A stretch of DNA of 64,000 bases, taken from contig JACPKY010000002.1 in assembly GCA_016186795.1 (NCBI GenBank), positions 797,892-861,891 of the forward strand, in the 5' to 3' direction. Shown here one piece after another: positions 3,286 through 63,897 of this stretch (position 1 is the first letter of the stretch; the number at the start of each line of letters is the position of its first letter). The stretch is from Candidatus Gottesmanbacteria bacterium (GTDB lineage: Bacteria > Patescibacteriota > Microgenomatia > 2-02-FULL-39-11). The notes below the pieces were generated by a model. That model had not been told where the DNA came from and searched no databases. It saw nothing but the letters and a program-made list of their open reading frames with translations. The position numbers were made by a program, and so were the translations under genes.

Positions 3286-5625
3286 ATGAAAAAGACCTCA
3301 ATCGGAGGAGTAATCCTTACATTTCTTCTCTCCCTTGCTGTTTATACCGCCACTCTCCCTCCCTCAATTACATTCGGAGACTCAGGAGAGTTTGTAACCG
3401 CCGCTTACTTTTTAGGTATACCTCATCCCCCAGGAGCACCATTCTGGGTTATTCTTTCTCATTTTTTTACGTATATTCCTTTTGGCTCAATTGCTTGGAG
3501 AGTAAATTTTTCAAGTGCATTTTTTGCATCGTCAACGATCGCTATTCTCTATATCCTCATGTCAAACGTTCTTGATAGAAAGAAAAAATTTGTCCTATCA
3601 GAAATCTTCCTCATCATGTCTACCGCACTAACGTATGCATTTACAAGATCATTCTGGGCTCAAGCGATTATTGCTAAATACTTTACTCTCAATACATTTC
3701 TTTTTGGAATACTTTTATTTCTTACATACAAATTTACCGAAACAAAAAAGCCTCTCTTTTTCTACCTTTTCTTTTTATTGACAGGATTTTCAATTGCGAC
3801 ACATTACCTTATTTTTCTTGTCATTCCAGTTCTCCTTTTATGGATATTTCTTGTGAATCGAAGAGTCATTTGGAATAAACGAATCCTTTTTATTAGTTTC
3901 ATTTCTTTTGTAGCAGGTCTTAGTGTTTTTCTCTATCTTCCAATTCGTGCCAATGCAAATCCTCCTATTAATTGGGGGAACCCCAATACGCTCTCGACAT
4001 TTCTGTATCACGTAACTCGGCAACAATTTCAAAGAAGTTTTGTCTCTGAGGCAACAAACTTAGGTGTGTCACTTCCCATTGCATCATTTGCAGGTGAAAA
4101 AATCTCCTTAAGAATATTTACGTCCGCCCATGCATTTGGTGCCGCCGTAATTTATGAATTCCCATTCTATATACTTATCTTTACTATTGTGGGGGGTATA
4201 TTTCTTTTAAAAAACTCCCGTACGAGAAGCTGGGCCATCCTTCTTTTTCTTCTTTTTCTGGCAAGCGGTTGGGGATTTGCGTTCCTTACGAATGCTCCTA
4301 TCCCAAACCCTTCTGACAAACACGCCGAATACTTATACGCGTATCTACTTCTCACTCTATTAACAGGATATGGAGTTCTTTTTTTATTCGAGAAAGTACG
4401 TAATCGGTTTTCCCACATATTCGAATATCTATTTCTCGCATTAATAGCCACTTCCCCATTTCTCCTTTTGATAAATAGTTTTAAAATAAACAATTGGAGC
4501 AATAATACGGTTGCGTACGATCATGCCATCAATATTTTGAAAACCTTGGACCAAAATGCCATTTTGATTGCGGATAAAAACAATTGGGTATTTCCCCTGC
4601 TCTATGCATCGAAAGTCGAGCAAATAAGACCTGATGTTACCATCTATGATAGAACTGGGAATCTCTTTGAGAGAGTGTATAACTTTACGTCAAGTCAAGT
4701 ACATTCATTTGATGAACTAGAAACTTTTAGAGAAAAGGTAGAAAAAAATATACAAGAAAAATATCCTAATCGCCCATTTTATTTCGCTGCTGACAAAAAT
4801 TTTGAGAACTATCCGCGAGAAGTTTTGCAAGAAGGAATACTCTACAAACAGCGGACTTTTCCTCCGAAATCAATCGACTTTCCAATTTTCTACAAGAATA
4901 TTTTGGCTATCAATACGATCCCATATGACGATTTTGATAGTACGTACATGAGCGCGTATTATCACTTTCGGTTTGCCGATCAGCTCATTTCTGAGAATAA
5001 GAAAGAACAAGCCTTAGAAGAATTGGAAAAAGCAAAAAAGATTGGGAATGATAACACACTTGTTTTGACAAACGTTGCAAAATATTTAGGAGAACTTGGA
5101 AGTAAAAACGAAGCAATTGATATATATAGAAATCTTATTGACAGAAACTCAGCAAATGATGTTGTCCACTTTAACCTTGCAGTACTTCTTGAAGAAAAGA
5201 AAGAGTATGATAAGGCTTCCGCGGAGTATAAGAAATCTATAGATATAAACCCCAAAAACTTCCAGGCAATTTTTCGCCTTGCACAACTTTTCGAACTTGG
5301 GAAGAAATATCAAGAAGCCCTTGACCAATACATGTCCTTGGTAAATTTGAACTATGTGACTAATTACACGATTGAAAAAATAGTTGCGCTCGCTACACGA
5401 ACAGGTCAATGTGATCTTGCAGAAATGTTCTATGGAAGATTAAGCATTACCTCAAATTTTAAAGTGTTTGCAAATAATATCGGTATTTGTTGGGCGCAGA
5501 AAGGAGAATATAATAAAGCAAAAATACAGTGGGAGAAAGCACTTGAAATTGATAACTCGTACGATCAACCGAAGGAGAATTTGAAACGGTTAGAGAGTCT
5601 TCCTCCTACCCTTAGGCAAAATTGA
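3286..5625 (+). CDS. DUF2723/TMEM260-like GT-C-fold membrane protein with C-terminal TPR repeats
   Basis: N-terminal GDSGEF motif, more than 10 predicted TM helices, and C-terminal TPR-like repeats (for example KAKIQWEKALEIDNSY). Confidence 0.55.
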   Translation: MKKTSIGGVILTFLLSLAVYTATLPPSITFGDSGEFVTAAYFLGIPHPPGAPFWVILSHFFTYIPFGSIAWRVNFSSAFFASSTIAILYILMSNVLDRKKKFVLSEIFLIMSTALTYAFTRSFWAQAIIAKYFTLNTFLFGILLFLTYKFTETKKPLFFYLFFLLTGFSIATHYLIFLVIPVLLLWIFLVNRRVIWNKRILFISFISFVAGLSVFLYLPIRANANPPINWGNPNTLSTFLYHVTRQQFQRSFVSEATNLGVSLPIASFAGEKISLRIFTSAHAFGAAVIYEFPFYILIFTIVGGIFLLKNSRTRSWAILLFLLFLASGWGFAFLTNAPIPNPSDKHAEYLYAYLLLTLLTGYGVLFLFEKVRNRFSHIFEYLFLALIATSPFLLLINSFKINNWSNNTVAYDHAINILKTLDQNAILIADKNNWVFPLLYASKVEQIRPDVTIYDRTGNLFERVYNFTSSQVHSFDELETFREKVEKNIQEKYPNRPFYFAADKNFENYPREVLQEGILYKQRTFPPKSIDFPIFYKNILAINTIPYDDFDSTYMSAYYHFRFADQLISENKKEQALEELEKAKKIGNDNTLVLTNVAKYLGELGSKNEAIDIYRNLIDRNSANDVVHFNLAVLLEEKKEYDKASAEYKKSIDINPKNFQAIFRLAQLFELGKKYQEALDQYMSLVNLNYVTNYTIEKIVALATRTGQCDLAEMFYGRLSITSNFKVFANNIGICWAQKGEYNKAKIQWEKALEIDNSYDQPKENLKRLESLPPTLRQN

Positions 5626-45946: not shown

Positions 45947-46414
45947 TCAGCTCACCGCTTTTTTCACGAGTGCCTTGATCTTTGCCTCTTCGGTAGCAGT
46001 CAACTCCTTCAACGCGAAGGAAGTCGGCCATATGGCACCTTCGTCGAGGTTAGCCTCGTCGCTGAAGCCGAACGTCGCGTACCTCGACTTGAACTTATAC
46101 GCGCTTTGGAAGAAGCAGACGACCTTGCCGTCCTTGGCATACGCGGGCATCCCGTACCAAGTCTTTGGTGAGAGTGTTGGGACGCTAGTTTTGATGATCG
46201 TATGAAGCCGCTTGGCCATGGTGCGATCCGGTTCCGGCATCTCGGCGATCTTCGCGAGCACGGCTCTTTCTCCGTCTTGTCCGCTAGCTTCCGCCTTCAA
46301 TTCTTGGGCGCGCTCCTTCATCGCAGCCCGTTCCTCGTCTGTGAATCCTTTGAACTTCTTGTTGATCGCGGTGGCGCTCTTGGCGGTCTTTTGCGCGTCC
46401 TTCTTTGAGCTCAT
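45947..46414 (-). CDS. DUF1801 (YdhG-like) protein encoded by a GC-rich segment
   Basis: The C-terminal [18 protein letters not shown] pattern matches DUF1801. The coding DNA is markedly GC-richer (around 55-58% by eye) than its surroundings, and it has a good SD AAGGAGG in the AT-rich flank. Confidence 0.55.
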
Positions 46415-48321: not shown

Positions 48322-48339
48322 GCTCCCCCGCGTGGATTC
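48322..48339. repeat. 18-bp direct repeat GCTCCCCCGCGTGGATTC, identical to the 3' end of the tRNA at 50379-50396 (distal att-like copy)
   Basis: Exact 18 of 18 match; the sequence diverges immediately on both sides. Confidence 0.6.
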
Positions 48340-48365
48340 CCTTCGGTAAACTCAGGGTAAACTTC

Positions 48366-48653
48366 TCATCCAGAGAGAAGAGCTTCGGCAAATTCAGTAC
48401 AGGCATTGATCCCAAGTCTTCCATCAACTAACATCTGCTTCTTTGCTCGATTCCAACCTTTTAATTGCTTTTCTCGCTTTGCTGCTTCACTTTCTTGAGC
48501 GTATTTCTCACAATACACTATCTTGATTTGAGAAAACTTTTTGGTAAAAAAAGAATTTTTATTTTTGTGCTGTGCAATTCTTTTTACTAAATCATTGGTG
48601 ATCCCGATGTAAAAAGTTTTCTCATCGCAAAGAAGTATATATACAAACCACAT
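48366..48653 (-). CDS. GIY-YIG nuclease family protein (small, stand-alone)
   Basis: WFVYILLC...TFYIGITNDLVKRIAQH. Confidence 0.8.
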   Translation of the reverse strand: MWFVYILLCDEKTFYIGITNDLVKRIAQHKNKNSFFTKKFSQIKIVYCEKYAQESEAAKREKQLKGWNRAKKQMLVDGRLGINACTEFAEALLSG

Positions 48654-48963
48654 TGTATTAGTATTTTATAATATGTGGCCTGCATTGAGCTTGCCGAAGT
48701 GCTCGCTAAATGGGACGATTTTAGACAGACGAATTGGGATGAAATTATAGAATATCCTGAAGAAACACTAAGACAAACAAAATATCTGCTTTCGGGTATA
48801 TCTGCCTAAATAACTAACTTATGGAATAATTCTTTTTCCGGTAGACTTTTTAGTTAGTCCTATCATTTCTACTAAATATCCCCTGAGCGATAACATTCAA
48901 AACTATATAATTTTATTTCCTATTCCAGATCTTCAATTTTGATCACACTTACTTTTACTTTTA

Positions 48964-49545
48964 TTAACTAATAATTTGAGCACCACAACTAGGACAAACG
49001 TTAGATCCAATAAGTATGCCTATACTTGTTCCACATTCGCTACAAACTATATTCGGATGGACTTCGTTTATTGATTCTGAAGGCGAAGGCGATGGAGAGA
49101 AAGATTTAGAGGGGGAAACAGAGGCATTAGCAATTCCAGAGGCTGTGGTAACTGCAGTTCCTAGAGTCATATTATTAATCGTTTCATTAGCGAACTTTTT
49201 TAACTCAAGTTTAAAATCCTCAAGATTGATCTGGTTCTGTTGGAGTTTATCTAGTTTGTTGCTCATATCTTCTAACCGAATTACCTCTCGATTATCTGGA
49301 AACATTTTCTCTACCATTTCAAACCAATTATCTCTTGCCTCAATAATTCTTTTCCTTTTATTTGGGTCATTACCGAATCTTTCGTGACAATTGGGACAAA
49401 GCGGAGCCGCGTTACTTATATCATTTGATCCCCCTTCTTTTTCAGGTTTAATATGATGAACTTCAATATCAAGACTTTGACAAAAGCAACATTTAAACAT
49501 TGCTTTTTTTCTTATTACTTTTTTTGTTTCTTCTGTAAAATCCAT
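48964..49545 (-). CDS. HNH endonuclease with a C-terminal zinc ribbon
   Basis: CCFCQS...HHIKPEKEGGSNDISNAAPLCPNCHE; C-terminal CSECG...CPSCG. Confidence 0.7.
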   Translation of the reverse strand: MDFTEETKKVIRKKAMFKCCFCQSLDIEVHHIKPEKEGGSNDISNAAPLCPNCHERFGNDPNKRKRIIEARDNWFEMVEKMFPDNREVIRLEDMSNKLDKLQQNQINLEDFKLELKKFANETINNMTLGTAVTTASGIANASVSPSKSFSPSPSPSESINEVHPNIVCSECGTSIGILIGSNVCPSCGAQIIS

Positions 49546-49556
49546 ATTGTTGTCAA

Positions 49557-49802
49557 CTACGAGTTCTTAATTAATTCTCTCATCAGCGCAAAATCCGAAT
49601 CGCTGAACCATACGGTATTAAGAGACCATCGAATTGCTCTACCAATTTTACCTCTAGGGTGGACATATCCCTTACGATATAACTGTTTGACGATTGCTCC
49701 TTCTGATTTTCCCGATACCGTTGTCTCTTTATTGGGACTGTCTGCGATTTTAAGCAGCAGACGTATCTGATTGAGTGGCATAAAAGTGATTTTTTCTCTC
49801 AT
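49557..49802 (-). CDS. Small hypothetical protein
   Basis: 81-aa ORF between the HNH and GIY-YIG genes. Confidence 0.3.
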   Translation of the reverse strand: MREKITFMPLNQIRLLLKIADSPNKETTVSGKSEGAIVKQLYRKGYVHPRGKIGRAIRWSLNTVWFSDSDFALMRELIKNS

Positions 49803-50017
49803 ATTTATTACCTATTCCAATATAATTTATATATTATATCATACTACAGCTTCTATTGCAAGCACTTCATACGTAATAATCTACATCCACGACATCCATT
49901 TAGTGAAATGTTATAATGCTAACAAACAGAGCGAGAAAATACCTTTGGCGTGGTCTTGAACCCTGAAAGGGGGGCTTCTCGTAAGGGGACGGTTCTCAGC
50001 TACTGTTTTGATAAATT

Positions 50018-50284
50018 CTACTTTTTCCAAGGAGACTTTTTGAAATAATCCTTCAACATTTTTTCTATCTCCTTCTTACCATTTCCTCCTTTTAAATAGA
50101 CTTCTCTTCTTTTTGCATCTGATTCTATCAAAAATGCTTCGTAATAAATAAGTGTAAGAGGAAGACGATGTTTAGTAGAAAATACAAATCCGTTTTTATG
50201 CTTCTTAATTCTTGTTTTTAAATCCTGGGCATATCCTGTATATAATTTCCCATCTTCACAATGGAGAATATAAACGTAATACAC
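50018..50284 (-). CDS. GIY-YIG nuclease family protein (second paralog)
   Basis: YYVYILHC...KLYTGYAQDLKTRIKKH. Followed upstream by the hairpin GCCCCGTTTAACGGGGC and a T run. Confidence 0.8.
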   Translation of the reverse strand: MYYVYILHCEDGKLYTGYAQDLKTRIKKHKNGFVFSTKHRLPLTLIYYEAFLIESDAKRREVYLKGGNGKKEIEKMLKDYFKKSPWKK

Positions 50285-50376
50285 ATAATAAGTATAACAA
50301 TAATAAAGCCCCGTTAAACGGGGCTATATTTTTCAGTAATGGCTGTGCGCTTAGCGCACTATCGCCACGCTGAGCG

Positions 50377-50645
50377 TGGCTCCCCCGCGTGGATTCGAAC
50401 CACGAACCTTCTTCTTACAGAAATCCTCTTGTTACCAAAAGGGCTGGACTATCTTATTACCGACTAGGTCGGTATCAGGTATATAGTCTCTACACATTTA
50501 TTCCGACAATACGTCGGAAACTTAGCTCGGGATTACCCCACATAAAATGTAGGAGTCCCCCGAATTAGCCTGATTTTCGATACGCATTGCTGCGTAAAGC
50601 TGCCAATAAAGACAGGAAGCCGCTCTACCGTTGAGCTACAGGGGA
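50377..50645 (-). tRNA. tRNA-Asn(GUU), interrupted in the anticodon loop by a 194-nt intron
   Basis: Exon 1 (50645-50612) is TCCCCTG-TA-GCTC-AACGGTA-GAGC-G-GCTTC-CUGU. Exon 2 (50417-50380) is UAA-GAAGA-AGGTT-CGTGG-TTCGAAT-CCACG-CGGGGGA-G, with an encoded CCA at 50379-50377. The acceptor pairs 7 of 7 and the anticodon is G34-U35|U36. Confidence 0.65.
50418..50611 (-). other. Group I self-splicing intron (no ORF)
   Basis: 5' exon ends in U and the intron ends in G. The IGS GCAG pairs with exon CUGU. P2 is UACGCA-GCAA-UGCGUA. P7 is GACUA/UAGUC, with R-like GUAGAGACUA and S-like AAGAUAGUCC. P8 is ACCGAC-cuag-GUCGGU. P3 is GGCU/AGCC. Confidence 0.6.
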
Positions 50646-51344
50646 ATGTAAATGTACGGATGGCATTTTAGCACCAAACAACGCAAAAATCCACCCTATA
50701 ATTCGCCTATGAATTTCAGAGTCATTCACTCGAATTGCAAATACACCATATTGGTGAATATTTTTCCGAATTTTTTTAGAATCTTTTTTGTCGGAGGCAA
50801 TATATGTTTTATAAAAATTTTTCCTATCAATACCAGTTAATTGCGACCAAAATAATTTTGCTTTTTTCTCATCTCTTCTTTCATGCAACCATATAGCTCC
50901 TCTATATTTAGAATTTTCTATATCACAATATTTTCGAAACCATTTCATCATAAACCTAATAAGGGTCGGATTTGCATTTGAAAAGCCTATTTGACCATCT
51001 GTCTTATCACCTTCTCCTGCATACAAAGCAACTCCAGCTATAAACTCTTCTCTACTATTTAATTGTCCAATATCCTGTTTAGCTCTTTGGTGAATACTAG
51101 CAATTTTTTGATGTCGCCTGCGCCGTTTATTATCTGCTGCAATTATTGATCCACGACGCTGACCTAAATTTCTCATAGAGATAAGCCTTTGTTTTTGAAC
51201 CACTGAAAGTTCAATATCTTTACACCAACGACTAATTGTATCTTTGGAAACATGAATTTTTTGCAGAATTTCCCCATAAGATAGGCCTTTTTTACGTAAC
51301 GATTGCGCAATATTTTTCTCATTTAACTTTCCGAAATATCCCAT
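50625..51344 (-). CDS. HTH-containing protein with a LAGLIDADG-like motif (possible homing-endonuclease-like)
   Basis: N-terminal HTH (LSYGEILQKIHVSKDTISRWCKDI), then IAGVALYAGEGDK resembling LAGLIDADG. The 3' end overlaps the tRNA 5' end by about 20 nt. Confidence 0.3.
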   Translation of the reverse strand: MGYFGKLNEKNIAQSLRKKGLSYGEILQKIHVSKDTISRWCKDIELSVVQKQRLISMRNLGQRRGSIIAADNKRRRRHQKIASIHQRAKQDIGQLNSREEFIAGVALYAGEGDKTDGQIGFSNANPTLIRFMMKWFRKYCDIENSKYRGAIWLHERRDEKKAKLFWSQLTGIDRKNFYKTYIASDKKDSKKIRKNIHQYGVFAIRVNDSEIHRRIIGWIFALFGAKMPSVHLHSPVAQR

Positions 51345-62683: not shown

Positions 62684-62782
62684 TCCCGCCGTCGCTAAAG
62701 CCATGGCGGGCGAAGGCGGGAACCGGAGCGGAAAGGACGATTTTCCTTCGATTTCACTCAGGATGGTGAGCCTGTCGAACCA
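62684..62782 (-). ncRNA. GC-rich, potentially structured leader element (candidate cis-regulatory RNA)
   Basis: A roughly 100-nt GC-rich island in an AT-rich intergenic region. It has nested inverted repeats CCCGCC...GGCGGG and CGCC...GGCG, upstream of the 62010-62615 gene. Confidence 0.25.
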
Positions 62783-62789
62783 CAAGTTT

Positions 62790-62810
62790 TTCTTTGGCGG
62801 CAAATTCTTT
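62790..62810. repeat. 21-nt motif TTCTTTGGCGGCAAATTCTTT, copy A (abuts the stop codon of the 62810-63175 gene)
   Basis: Three exact copies of the 21-nt core, at 62790, 63200 and 63861. Confidence 0.6.
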
Positions 62811-63175
62811 CAAAAAATCCCGTTTTCGTTAGGCGAATCTTTCAGCGCCTCCTGCGACGCCTCCCATTCTTCTACAATTTTACTTCCTTCAAAAAGGAAA
62901 ATATGGATAACGGAAAATATTTTATCGGCTGCAAGCGTTACCTTCCCGTGTACGGTAACAAGGTCGCCGTCTTCAAGCATGCGCAAGGTCTCGTATTTTT
63001 TATCGGGAAATTGCTTTGCATTCTCTTCCATGCCAGCCAAAAGTGTCTCGCGATCTCCTTTGTAGTAGGCGTTGTGGTGGATAAAATTTGGATGCACATA
63101 TTTTTCGTACGCCTCGCGCACTTTACCGGAGGAGGCAAGTGTTAAAAACGATGTTGCGATGTCTTTTTTGCTCAT
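62810..63175 (-). CDS. NTF2/SnoaL-like small protein
   Basis: 121 aa with an alpha+beta cone pattern. Confidence 0.5.
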   Translation of the reverse strand: MSKKDIATSFLTLASSGKVREAYEKYVHPNFIHHNAYYKGDRETLLAGMEENAKQFPDKKYETLRMLEDGDLVTVHGKVTLAADKIFSVIHIFLFEGSKIVEEWEASQEALKDSPNENGIF

Positions 63176-63199
63176 AGTCTAAATTTTAAGCCGATTTTG

Positions 63200-63220
63200 T
63201 TCTTTGGCGGCAAATTCTTT
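63200..63220. repeat. 21-nt motif, copy B (19 nt after the stop of the 63240-63833 gene and 24 nt before the ATG of the 62810-63175 gene)
   Basis: The same 21-nt sequence. Confidence 0.6.
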
Positions 63221-63239
63221 GAGTTCAGAAAGCTGCGCC

Positions 63240-63833
63240 TCAAGCTCCAACAGTACCTGTCTTGACTTTTCCAGTTCGTTTGTAATTGACAATAATCACT
63301 CCGGTTGGAGTAACCGAACTTTCTATTAATACAAATGCTGCCGGAATCGTGCCATTGTCAAACAACTTTTTTCCTTTACCAAGAGTCAGCGGGTAAATTT
63401 TGAGCCAGAGTTCGTCCACTAAATCATTCTTAAGTAGCAGCTGAACGAGCTTACCGCTGCCCCAAACTTGAATGTCAGAACCTTCTGAATTTTTGAGCTT
63501 TTCGATATCTGCCAAGCTTTTGAGGAAAACTGAGTTTTTCCAATCTGACTTTCTCATGGTCTTGGACATGACGTATTTTGTGACATCATTGATACCTGGC
63601 CATGCATTTTCATGCTCTGGCCAGTAATTAGCAAAGATCTCAAATGTTTTTCTGCCCAAAAGAAGGTCTGCAGGTTTCATCTGTTTTTCCATGACCTTAC
63701 CACCAACATCGTCAAAATAAGGCGCAACCCAACCGCCATATTTGAAACCGCCCGATGTATCTTCCTCAGGTCCACCAGGTGCTTGCATTACTCCATCTAA
63801 TGTAATAAATGATAAAACAATTATTTTTCTCAC
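63240..63833 (-). CDS. Dihydrofolate reductase-like (RibD C-terminal domain/YwjB family) protein
   Basis: IVLSFITLDGVMQAPGGPEED...FKYGGW pattern. Confidence 0.75.
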   Translation of the reverse strand: MRKIIVLSFITLDGVMQAPGGPEEDTSGGFKYGGWVAPYFDDVGGKVMEKQMKPADLLLGRKTFEIFANYWPEHENAWPGINDVTKYVMSKTMRKSDWKNSVFLKSLADIEKLKNSEGSDIQVWGSGKLVQLLLKNDLVDELWLKIYPLTLGKGKKLFDNGTIPAAFVLIESSVTPTGVIIVNYKRTGKVKTGTVGA

Positions 63834-63860
63834 ATATTGATTTAATTATTTTACCAGTTT

Positions 63861-63881
63861 TTCTTTGGCGGCAAATTCTTT
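63861..63881. repeat. 21-nt motif, copy C (16 nt after the stop of the partial gene at the window end)
   Basis: The same 21-nt sequence. Confidence 0.6.
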
Positions 63882-63897
63882 TGACAAAGAAGGGTTT

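Follow-up and report, generated by a model that had tools for sequence, protein, structure and literature searches.

A stretch of 64,000 nucleotides (nt) from Candidatus Gottesmanbacteria bacterium (assembly GCA_016186795.1, contig JACPKY010000002.1), called the window below, contains an intron-bearing tRNA-Asn gene and, about 2 kb beyond it, an exact copy of the 3' end of this gene. The space between the two is occupied by small nuclease genes. The current work deals with this repeat and with a unit of about 360 bp, built around a gene for a minimal GIY-YIG nuclease, to which the distal repeat copy is joined. An earlier note on this DNA had pointed to an exact 18-nt direct repeat with immediate divergence on both sides, and this description was confirmed. 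The 18-mer GCTCCCCCGCGTGGATTC is present in exactly two copies in the window, one at the tRNA gene (DR-L) and one at the distal position (DR-R), and the bases bordering both copies diverge at once on each side. No further copies were found in the window, even when up to 3 mismatches were allowed, and two matches were reached in none of 100 shuffled sequences. The repeat corresponds to the tRNA-Asn positions from T-loop G57 to discriminator G73 plus C74. No step in base composition was observed where the borders of an island would be.

The host tRNA is intact. After in-silico splicing of the exons 50645-50612 and 50417-50380 (minus strand), ARAGORN recognized tRNA-Asn(gtt); the exon and intron borders were placed by comparison with intron-less tRNA-Asn genes of other genomes. 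The intron that had been read in this tRNA was substantiated as a group I intron, with 68.6 bits for Rfam RF00028 (threshold 50, E 1e-16) over the full model (1-253) when region 50425-50626 was searched alone; a whole-window Rfam search at gathering thresholds missed it. Because the gene is interrupted by the intron, default ARAGORN finds no tRNA in the window, and the intron mode misnames it Val(aac). Beyond the intron, Rfam gave nothing at a useful score, and the hairpin ends described below belong to no known RNA family.

The group I intron of the tRNA-Asn(GUU) gene lies between anticodon positions 35 and 36. Introns of a similar kind can be observed in the tRNA-Asn genes of many metagenome contigs of the Candidate Phyla Radiation (CPR), including those of loci L021, L033, L013, and L167 (loci of other genomes are given by such numbers), and other contigs carry the same exons without the intron. 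Default ARAGORN overlooks these intron-bearing tRNA-Asn genes in general, and the intron mode gives them wrong names.

Four open reading frames (ORFs) lie between the repeat copies. Family scans confirmed the content that the earlier note had given: two GIY-YIG paralogs (GIY#1, distal, and GIY#2, close to the tRNA; 40% identical to each other), an HNH endonuclease with a zinc ribbon, and an ORF of 81 amino acids (aa), with no integrase. Among these four ORFs, no recombinase was detected in Pfam, NCBIfam, and PHROG scans; the sole trace was a match of the 81-aa ORF to PF07508 'Recombinase' at E 0.046, which is below any threshold. The features of the locus, including the left end (LE), the right end (RE), and the inverted internal copy of the left end (IRi) of the GIY#1 unit, are collected in Table 1.

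Table 1. Features of the tRNA-Asn locus, listed from the tRNA side to the distal side (positions are those of the window)
Feature	Position	Strand	Basis
239-aa neighbour with HTH and LAGLIDADG-like character; outside the island	50625-51344	minus	tRNA-linked homologs
tRNA-Asn(GUU) 5' exon, positions 1-35, ends CCUGU	50612-50645	minus	exact match to intron-less tRNA-Asn elsewhere; ARAGORN
Group I intron in the anticodon loop, 194 nt; 5' exon ends U, intron ends G	50418-50611	minus	Rfam RF00028; intron-less alleles
tRNA-Asn 3' exon	50380-50417	minus	ARAGORN on spliced exons
DR-L, repeat copy at the tRNA: G57-G73 plus C74	50379-50396	minus	exact repeat
Two small hairpins, CCACGCTCAGCGTGG and GTGCGCTAAGCGCAC, leader of the GIY#2-type cassette	50345-50379	minus	sequence; comparable leaders elsewhere
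Hairpin resembling an intrinsic terminator, after the tRNA	50307-50325	minus	sequence prediction
GIY#2, 88 aa, second-subfamily GIY-YIG protein without C-terminal extension	50018-50284	minus	Pfam PF01541, E 2e-13
Motif GAACCGTCCCC downstream of GIY#2	49985-49995	minus	common to the L096 cassette only
81-aa ORF, with its own promoter-like site (49861-49833)	49557-49802	minus	no family match above noise
Free-standing HNH endonuclease with C-terminal zinc ribbon	48964-49545	minus	Pfam HNH, E 3.5e-10
GAGC, tRNA-tail remnant attached to the left end of the element	48701-48704	minus	sequence; other split loci keep 4-8 nt
LE of the GIY#1 element, ACTTCGGCAAGCTCAATGCAGGC, holding a -35-like hexamer	48678-48700	minus	LE consensus in relatives
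GIY#1, 95-aa GIY-YIG nuclease of UPF0213/Slx1-like type	48366-48653	minus	Pfam PF01541, E 5e-18
IRi, inverted LE copy inside the C-terminal coding region	48382-48404	minus	18/23 positions complementary to LE
RE, GTTTACCCTGAGTTTACCGAAGGG, hairpin CCCT-GA-G-TTTAC-C-GA-AGGG	48339-48362	minus	covariation in 30 loci
DR-R, distal copy of the tRNA-Asn 3' end	48322-48339	minus	exact repeat; same placement relative to RE in >20 loci

GIY#1 consists of the nuclease domain and a tail of about 25 aa. A separate C-terminal DNA-binding domain is absent (TIGR01453, 19.9 bits against a cut-off of 56). The protein matches the PDB entries 1zg2 (E 3.5e-7) and 1ywl (E 1.2e-6), and its residues Y5, Y15, G17, R25, and E61 are invariant across 38 sequences. 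A promoter-like site lies at 48697-48668, overlapping the left end. The core of the left end, CTTCGGCAAGCTCA, recurs in two inverted copies, each agreeing at 12 of 14 positions: one in IRi (48383-48396) and one in RE (48341-48354, reverse complement CTTCGGTAAACTCA). The last G of the RE hairpin is at the same time the first base of DR-R, by which the distal repeat is fused to the nuclease unit.

Relatives of GIY#1 gave 461 matches, with identities up to 79% and homologs of 93-110 aa. From the family alignment, 80 loci of species-representative genomes were taken and their flanks compared; the taxon labels of several assemblies may be unreliable. One plan recurs among them: a complete tRNA gene, followed by LE (ACTTCGGCAAGCTCAGTGCAAGC), the ORF 20-90 nt further on, IRi near the end of the ORF, RE after the stop codon (for example GTTTACCCTGAG..CCGAAGGG), and finally a copy of the tRNA tail. 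LE starts 0-1 nt past the tRNA end in about 21 loci, and its consensus was found within 4 mismatches in 35 of the 37 close relatives. The tail copy comprises the last 16-22 nt of the tRNA of that same locus, from T-loop position 57; for the element as proposed below it is taken as 17-19 nt, reaching 1-2 nt beyond the discriminator. The orientation of the element is always that of the tRNA, and promoter-like -10 boxes of the elements' own are found just upstream of the ATG.

The association with tRNA genes was counted as a same-strand tRNA ending no more than 130 nt from the gene, among loci with enough upstream sequence. By this measure the closest relatives are tRNA-adjacent in 23 of 34 cases and the second subfamily in 10 of 17, against 1 of 25 for distant, mostly non-CPR GIY-YIG genes. 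A tRNA-tail repeat scoring at least 14 matching bases was detected after the ORF in 23 of the 31 tRNA-adjacent loci and in none of 29 in a control shifted by 1 kb; its start is almost always at -17, corresponding to T-loop G57. In more than 20 independent loci, the 360-bp unit is all that stands between a tRNA and the copy of its tail. The proposal of the earlier note that the repeat is the signature of insertion at a tRNA 3' end was supported.

Many tRNAs are used. Those of the first subfamily are Asn (the commonest), Glu, Gln, Ser, and Arg, and those of the second are His, Glu, Ser, and Asp; every one of them is matched by a repeat of its own. The identities of interrupted genes are unreliable: the 'Thr' reported by the intron mode of ARAGORN in L011 and L013 is, judged by the 3' exons, apparently an intron-containing tRNA-Asn. 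In a neighbour-joining tree the proteins are mostly grouped by tRNA type (a Glu clade, a Gln clade, and Asn clades), with a few switches. Two elements at different tRNAs were found on one contig (L014 and L049), tandem copies of the element in L031 and L040, and decayed copies in L167, which has only RE plus the repeat, and L150, which has only an LE stub. L006 carries a tRNA-Asn-like tail, GAATCCAGCCGGGGGAGC, about 25 nt past the stop codon of its GIY-YIG gene. Its upstream sequence GAGCACTTCGGCAAGCTCAGTGCAGGCC is almost identical to 48704-48677 (minus) of the window, and this upstream motif is the reverse complement of the C-terminal coding sequence of its own gene.

A metagenome scan for GCTCCCCCGCGTGGATTC returned at least 120 loci, nearly all of them tRNA-Asn genes with an identical tail followed by unrelated sequence, in which the element is absent. 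The numerous occurrences of the 18-mer, which had been considered as possible chance matches, are therefore genuine tRNA-Asn 3' ends. Most genomes thus have the target but not the element, whose distribution is patchy; mobile DNA behaves in this way. No relatives of GIY#1 were found in viral contigs, and no phage vector is evident.

The terminal inverted repeats of this plan recur across loci and also in the second subfamily, in which the ends are different but analogous (LE CCTTCGACAAGCTCAGGG; RE GGTGAGCCTGTCGAACCATCC, directly abutting the repeat). In the RE hairpin, a stem of 4 bp is followed by tandem G-A/A-G, a further pair, and a loop of 4-6 nt. Over 30 loci, 99.3% of the cells were paired, with compensatory changes at all five pairs (37 cells). 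This level of pairing was matched by none of 500 shuffles, and a shift of the partner by one column lowered it to 51-69%. LE hardly varies, and across the 30 loci the complementarity of IRi to it is 75%. The mismatches between LE and IRi favour G-U-compatible changes (72 vs 34 incompatible transitions), and RNA folding gave a z-score of -3.25 with a predicted long-range stem. The G-U bias and the long-range stem would fit pairing in RNA; the symmetric position of the G-A-type hairpin, 3'-terminal on both DNA strands, would agree with a function of the inverted repeats in DNA. The cores CTTCGG/CCGAAG (TCGAAC in the second subfamily) appear to resemble the palindromic T-loop sequence TTCGAA. A self-cleaving ribozyme in the right end, considered for its CUGA...GAA motif, was rejected: no Rfam match was obtained, and the motif is the inverted LE copy.

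The locus of the window departs from the simple plan in one respect. Of the tRNA tail, only the final four bases, GAGC, stand before its LE (48700-48678), and the tRNA itself is 1.67 kb away; the GIY#2 cassette, the 81-aa ORF, and the HNH gene lie between them. Similar phenomena can be observed in four other loci, in which 0.35-5.5 kb separate the tRNA from the repeat copy of the element. L026 consists of tRNA-Glu, 1.8 kb of DNA, LE, the element, and a perfect repeat copy; L033 of an intron-containing tRNA-Asn, 5.5 kb, and the element; L035 of tRNA-Gln, 2.8 kb, and the element; and L037 of tRNA-Ser, a GIY#2-like gene, a full repeat copy, and the element. Before LE, 4-8 nt of the tRNA tail are kept in L026, L033, and L035, and a full 17-nt copy in L037. 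The intervening DNA is unrelated between these loci (hydrolases, a transketolase-like gene, unknowns) and contains no integrase; an exception is L006, in which a large serine recombinase element lies upstream of a related GIY-YIG unit. The junction between the tRNA and LE is thus a repeated site of secondary insertion.

The DNA inserted in the window is a mosaic. The HNH gene and the 81-aa ORF were encountered in none of 200 fetched GIY or tRNA-Asn loci, so that the 2-kb block is not a recurring cassette; the earlier note had recommended a search for the same cassette elsewhere. The single island of about 2 kb bounded by the repeat, as the locus was first described, does not hold, since DR-R belongs to the distal GIY-YIG unit (48339-48704). 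The idea of a minimal mobile element was correct in essence, with the 360-bp unit rather than the 2-kb segment as its object, and a decayed integrase island is contradicted by the roughly 20 simple loci in which only the 360-bp unit is enclosed. The view of the locus as a pile-up of selfish-looking nuclease genes was supported.

A further arrangement was seen in L035. An ORF-less unit of about 130 nt follows the tRNA at 1546-1708 and is flanked by copies of the tRNA-Gln tail, and the whole 163-nt block recurs after the repeat copy of the GIY element (4748-4909). The block would be a passenger element without coding capacity that shares the target, or else a long stretch duplicated during insertion.

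Taken together, we consider it about 75% probable that the 18-bp repeat flanks a mobile element of about 360 bp (48339-48704, minus strand), whose family is widespread in CPR/Patescibacteria behind tRNA genes, and, jointly with this, that the appearance of a single 2-kb island is a false one produced by a later insertion of 1.67 kb. The basis in hand is the architecture, the recurrence at many tRNAs, the catalytic residues, and the membership in the UPF0213/Slx1-like family, and from these we infer movement. The element of the window would first have stood directly behind tRNA-Asn, and the 1.67 kb would later have entered between the tRNA tail and LE.

The nuclease may recognize the conserved T-loop of the tRNA gene. 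In the favoured homing model, an empty tRNA gene would be cut in the T-loop near 56/57, by analogy with the phage T4 endonuclease SegB. The left break end would copy from a filled donor through the homology of the tRNA body, and the right break end (57-73) would anneal to the repeat copy of the donor, which would serve as a portable right arm. With the repeat copy as right arm, the repeat would always begin at 57, the tRNA would stay intact, and entry would be possible despite unrelated downstream DNA. Alternatively, a staggered cut at 56/57 and 73/74 could be filled in, giving a target duplication of 17-19 bp; this accounts more simply for the colonization of new tRNA types with perfect repeats. 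Under either route the host repair would have to finish the insertion, because a 95-aa nuclease has no joining activity. Homing is regarded as quite possible at somewhat short of even odds, and the staggered cut as rather unlikely; the rest is left to other routes or a non-mobile role.

The repeat copies of L167, L010, and L013 bear on this choice. Each shows 4-5 differences from the tail of the resident tRNA-Asn and yet looks like another genuine tRNA-Asn allele; in L167 (reverse strand, about 400-840) there are five such differences, and the copy is identical to the 18-mer of the window, a widespread allele. Such copies have two conceivable origins: transport together with the element, or a change in the resident tRNA, which intron homing, for example, could have overwritten. 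The homing model allows repeat copies unlike the resident tRNA. Plain target duplication was not adopted outright as the whole story, since these copies look like a different genuine allele.

Several points weigh against a mobile element at this locus. The search for an orthologous empty or simple site of this species gave none, so that the insertion here is deduced from other genomes: none of the at least 120 metagenome loci with the 18-mer carries the window flank TAATAAATAGTTTAG, no exact record was found for the neighbouring major facilitator superfamily (MFS) protein and ChrB-like protein, and exact look-ups of the HNH protein and the 239-aa protein returned only short Logan contigs with the same arrangement, breaking at the tRNA or intron. 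Near-identical copies in different species, which would speak for recent mobility, were not found either; the closest protein is 78-79% identical. The nuclease is a 95-aa single-domain protein without an obvious DNA-binding or strand-joining module. An intact tRNA-tail target is regenerated after insertion, a difficulty for both models and awkward for simple homing, and the repeat mismatches of L167, L010, and L013 are not predicted by plain target duplication. The junction of the 1.67-kb insert with LE retains only GAGC. Lastly, the G-U-tolerant pairs and the tandem G-A pairs would also fit a role at the RNA level.

This last point leads to a different reading, in which the unit is a non-mobile cellular module linked to the tRNA. 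The GIY-YIG protein would act on the tRNA, its precursor, or RNA generally, and the hairpins and the tail copy would be RNA signals (processing, stability, or decoy) in a co-transcript. The constant orientation with the tRNA, the LE abutting the tRNA end, the G-U bias of the LE-IRi mismatches (72 vs 34), the sense-strand G-U pairs and tandem G-A pairs of the RE hairpin, and the fold z-score of -3.25 agree with this, and a fusion of Slx1-like domains with TrmH is on record (PMC1564403). A cellular module would hardly be so patchy, however, with most tRNA-Asn genes of the same tail lacking the unit, nor spread over many different tRNAs with tandem and decayed copies and some repeats unlike the resident tRNA. 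The elements also bear promoter-like -10 boxes of their own, and where DNA has been inserted, the unit stays with the displaced DR-R, apart from the functional tRNA. We judge such a module improbable. A chance repeat can be dismissed: none of 100 shuffles contained two matches, and the design recurs in dozens of loci.

Two further explanations accept mobility and assign it to another enzyme. A repeat that begins in the T-loop and restores the tRNA is typical of integrase targets, and the locus might accordingly be a decayed island that an integrase brought into the T-loop/3' part of tRNA-Asn, the 18-mers being attL and attR and the integrase having been lost. The large serine recombinase element upstream of a related unit in L006 and the very weak PF07508 match of the 81-aa ORF (E 0.046) point in the same direction, but that match is below any threshold, and about 20 loci have nothing but the 360-bp unit between the repeat copies; their LE is joined to the tRNA end, and they contain neither an integrase nor room for one. 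DR-R is moreover always fused to the RE hairpin, and the inserted DNA of L026, L033, and L035 is likewise free of integrases. The simple loci thus largely refute an integrase-borne island by their architecture, and it is held to be very improbable. The unit might instead be moved in trans by a transposase of the host or of another element, for example of HUH/RAYT type (RAYT, transposases associated with repetitive extragenic palindromic (REP) sequences) acting on the hairpin ends, with the GIY-YIG gene as cargo. Covarying hairpin ends do resemble those of IS200/IS605 elements and REP sequences. Against this, two subfamilies whose ends differ have no constant gene other than the GIY-YIG ORF; none of the loci examined had an HUH or DDE gene nearby; IS200/IS605 elements produce no target duplication; and small CPR genomes are unlikely to share one trans-acting enzyme across phyla. 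Mobilization in trans therefore appears scarcely credible, and a mobile element centred on its own GIY-YIG nuclease is the reading retained here.

The other genes of the locus contain some information of their own. The C at 50379 is both the first base of the first leader hairpin of the GIY#2 cassette and the last base of DR-L. In L096 and L169 (for L169, the analysis covered only the sequence downstream of the tRNA), tRNA-Asn is directly followed by a two-hairpin leader like that of the window, and L054 has a related hairpin leader behind its DR-R copy. Of the closest relatives of GIY#2, that of L096 is located directly 3' of tRNA-Asn and that of L104 directly 3' of tRNA-Ser, and those of L022 and L054 come behind another element's repeat copy. 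The 81-aa ORF has no family match in Pfam, NCBIfam, and PHROG scans, and one weak relative, in L212.

Homologs of the HNH endonuclease, 72-84% identical, occur in unrelated contexts, each behind a different small ORF. The identity to the L210 homolog is 72%, above that of sigma-70 (65%) and DnaG (39%) of the same two genomes. In the window, L208, L210, and L212, an unrelated small ORF always lies 11-37 nt upstream of the HNH/zinc-ribbon gene, and one HNH-preceding ORF encodes a 373-aa protein with an NmeDI_C restriction-enzyme domain. The HNH gene looks like a mobile module with a variable partner. The DnaG primase of L210 (1-2208, 997 aa) contains a faint LAGLIDADG_3 match, by which an intein or endonuclease insertion is suggested.

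On the 5' side of the tRNA, the 239-aa neighbour had been described as a helix-turn-helix (HTH) protein with a LAGLIDADG-like motif. A weak HTH was seen; LAGLIDADG was not matched in Pfam and appeared only when the family profile was compared with I-DmoI (E 0.005, over about 50 residues around LYAGEGDK). The ORF of this neighbour extends 8 codons into the tRNA of the window. Homologs are located just 5' of tRNA-Asn in L135 (6599-7315), L104 (6641-7351), and L102 (200-916), among others, and of other tRNAs elsewhere; a further homolog is that of L043 (3099-3764). The 239-aa protein may represent another tRNA-linked selfish gene family.

Additional arrangements around tRNA-Asn were noticed in the compared genomes. 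An intron-less tRNA-Asn of L210 has a GIY-YIG gene for an 83-aa protein on its 5' side (4140-4530). The left flank of this gene is a copy of the 5' part of the tRNA (TTCCGCGGTAGCTC..TAGAGC) broken by a hairpin, a mirror image of the 3'-tail elements, and an ORF similar to that of L210 runs into the tRNA 5' end in L096. A motif of about 70 nt, CAG(T/A)..GGACG(A/G)GAG...ATCGCTCTTTTC..GGTTCGAA, recurs just 3' of tRNA-Asn in many metagenome contigs (L112, L117, L122, L166, L124, L135, L175, and L187); this could be another element end or a small RNA.

Elsewhere in the window, a DUF1801-like gene (45947-46414, minus) has 55-58% G+C, compared with about 35-40% in the region, and was probably acquired recently. 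A weak match to the left-end core of the second subfamily, with 2 mismatches, lies at 62767-62780 (minus), beside a family of 36-nt repeats in three copies (TTCTTTGGCGGCAAATTCTTT, 62782-63888).

Small UPF0213/Slx1-like proteins, annotated as 'GIY-YIG nuclease family protein', are regarded as housekeeping proteins, and at least two large subfamilies of them behave as selfish elements with a defined target (from the T-loop to the 3' end of tRNA genes), defined ends, and a defined flanking repeat. For annotators, partial tRNA copies beside these genes are element borders rather than pseudogenes or attachment (att) sites. If the mechanism is confirmed, a nuclease-only, tRNA-targeted type will join the catalogue of mobile DNA and account for many of the integrase-less 'islands' beside tRNA genes in CPR genomes, and a natural system for recognizing a near-universal sequence will be available in compact form (about 360 bp, with a protein of 95 aa).

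It is tentatively suggested, as a rather doubtful extension, that these units form a new class of prokaryotic mobile element, in which the sole enzyme would be a minimal GIY-YIG nuclease of Slx1/UPF0213 type, the hairpin ends would mimic the T-loop, and a tRNA-tail copy, carried or created, would act as a portable right homology arm; DNA carried along would then form integrase-free genomic islets. The case for a new class could be made if nuclease-only mobility with a portable homology arm were confirmed. Were this true, the arm would give the element access to the same tRNA gene in every genome, irrespective of the downstream DNA, and whatever landed later between the tRNA and the element (1.67 kb here, 2-6 kb in L026, L033, and L035) would lie between the same arms and might move with it.

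Several known systems share a part of this design. The SegB protein of phage T4 is a GIY-YIG homing endonuclease whose recognition site holds the 11-bp TpsiC stem-loop motif of tRNA genes (PMC2330249). Like the element, its gene stands among tRNA genes, and it spreads by cutting copies that lack it (PMC2330249). SegB is therefore the best functional analogue for a putative T-loop targeting; however, it is a two-domain, I-TevI-like phage protein, and its gene is without inverted-repeat ends, hairpins, or a tRNA-tail copy, whereas the protein of the element is a 95-aa single-domain UPF0213/Slx1-type nuclease of bacterial chromosomes, with none found in viral contigs. More generally, the catalytic Tyr, Tyr, Arg, and Glu of homing genes of Seg/I-TevI type are common to GIY#1, but their linker-joined C-terminal DNA-binding domain (in proteins of about 200-250 aa) is not.

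The stand-alone UPF0213/Slx1-like proteins (YhbQ-like; 1zg2, 1ywl) belong to the same family as GIY#1 and have the same size and catalytic residues. A survey of the superfamily treats the small bacterial Slx1-like GIY-YIG proteins as vertically inherited proteins of repair or RNA metabolism (PMC1564403). GIY#1 is embedded in a unit that is bounded by repeats and inverted repeats and tied to tRNA tails; among the distant non-CPR members, this tRNA linkage was seen in 1 of 25.

Islands and prophages with a tyrosine or serine integrase resemble the element in their insertion into the 3' part of a tRNA gene, in a repeat starting in the T-loop, and in the intact tRNA that results, and in both, successive insertions at the same tRNA push the older ones outward. 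The element differs from them in that it has no integrase, a unit of only about 360 bp, a repeat fused to conserved ends, and many tRNAs, each with a matching repeat. The IS200/IS605 insertion sequences (IS) and the REP/RAYT systems have short, conserved, structure-forming hairpin ends and a precise placement at a specific target, as the element does, but they depend on an HUH tyrosine transposase and give no target duplication, whereas the element has a hydrolytic GIY-YIG nuclease and a repeat of 17-19 nt. Classical IS and transposons have the inverted ends and the flanking target repeat in common with it, but not the transposase (DDE, HUH, serine, or tyrosine), the sole ORF of the element being the GIY-YIG gene.

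Penelope-like retroelements combine a GIY-YIG endonuclease with a reverse transcriptase (PMC8557442). In these, as proposed for the element, a GIY-YIG nuclease serves integration and target duplications arise (PMC8557442), but they are eukaryotic, need the reverse transcriptase, which the element does not have, and show no targeting of tRNA tails. No report of GIY-YIG elements tied to tRNA tails was found in a full-text literature search of open-access papers. Compared with all of these systems, the element is rated as a combination of the features of a free-standing homing endonuclease gene with those of a tRNA-targeted insertion.

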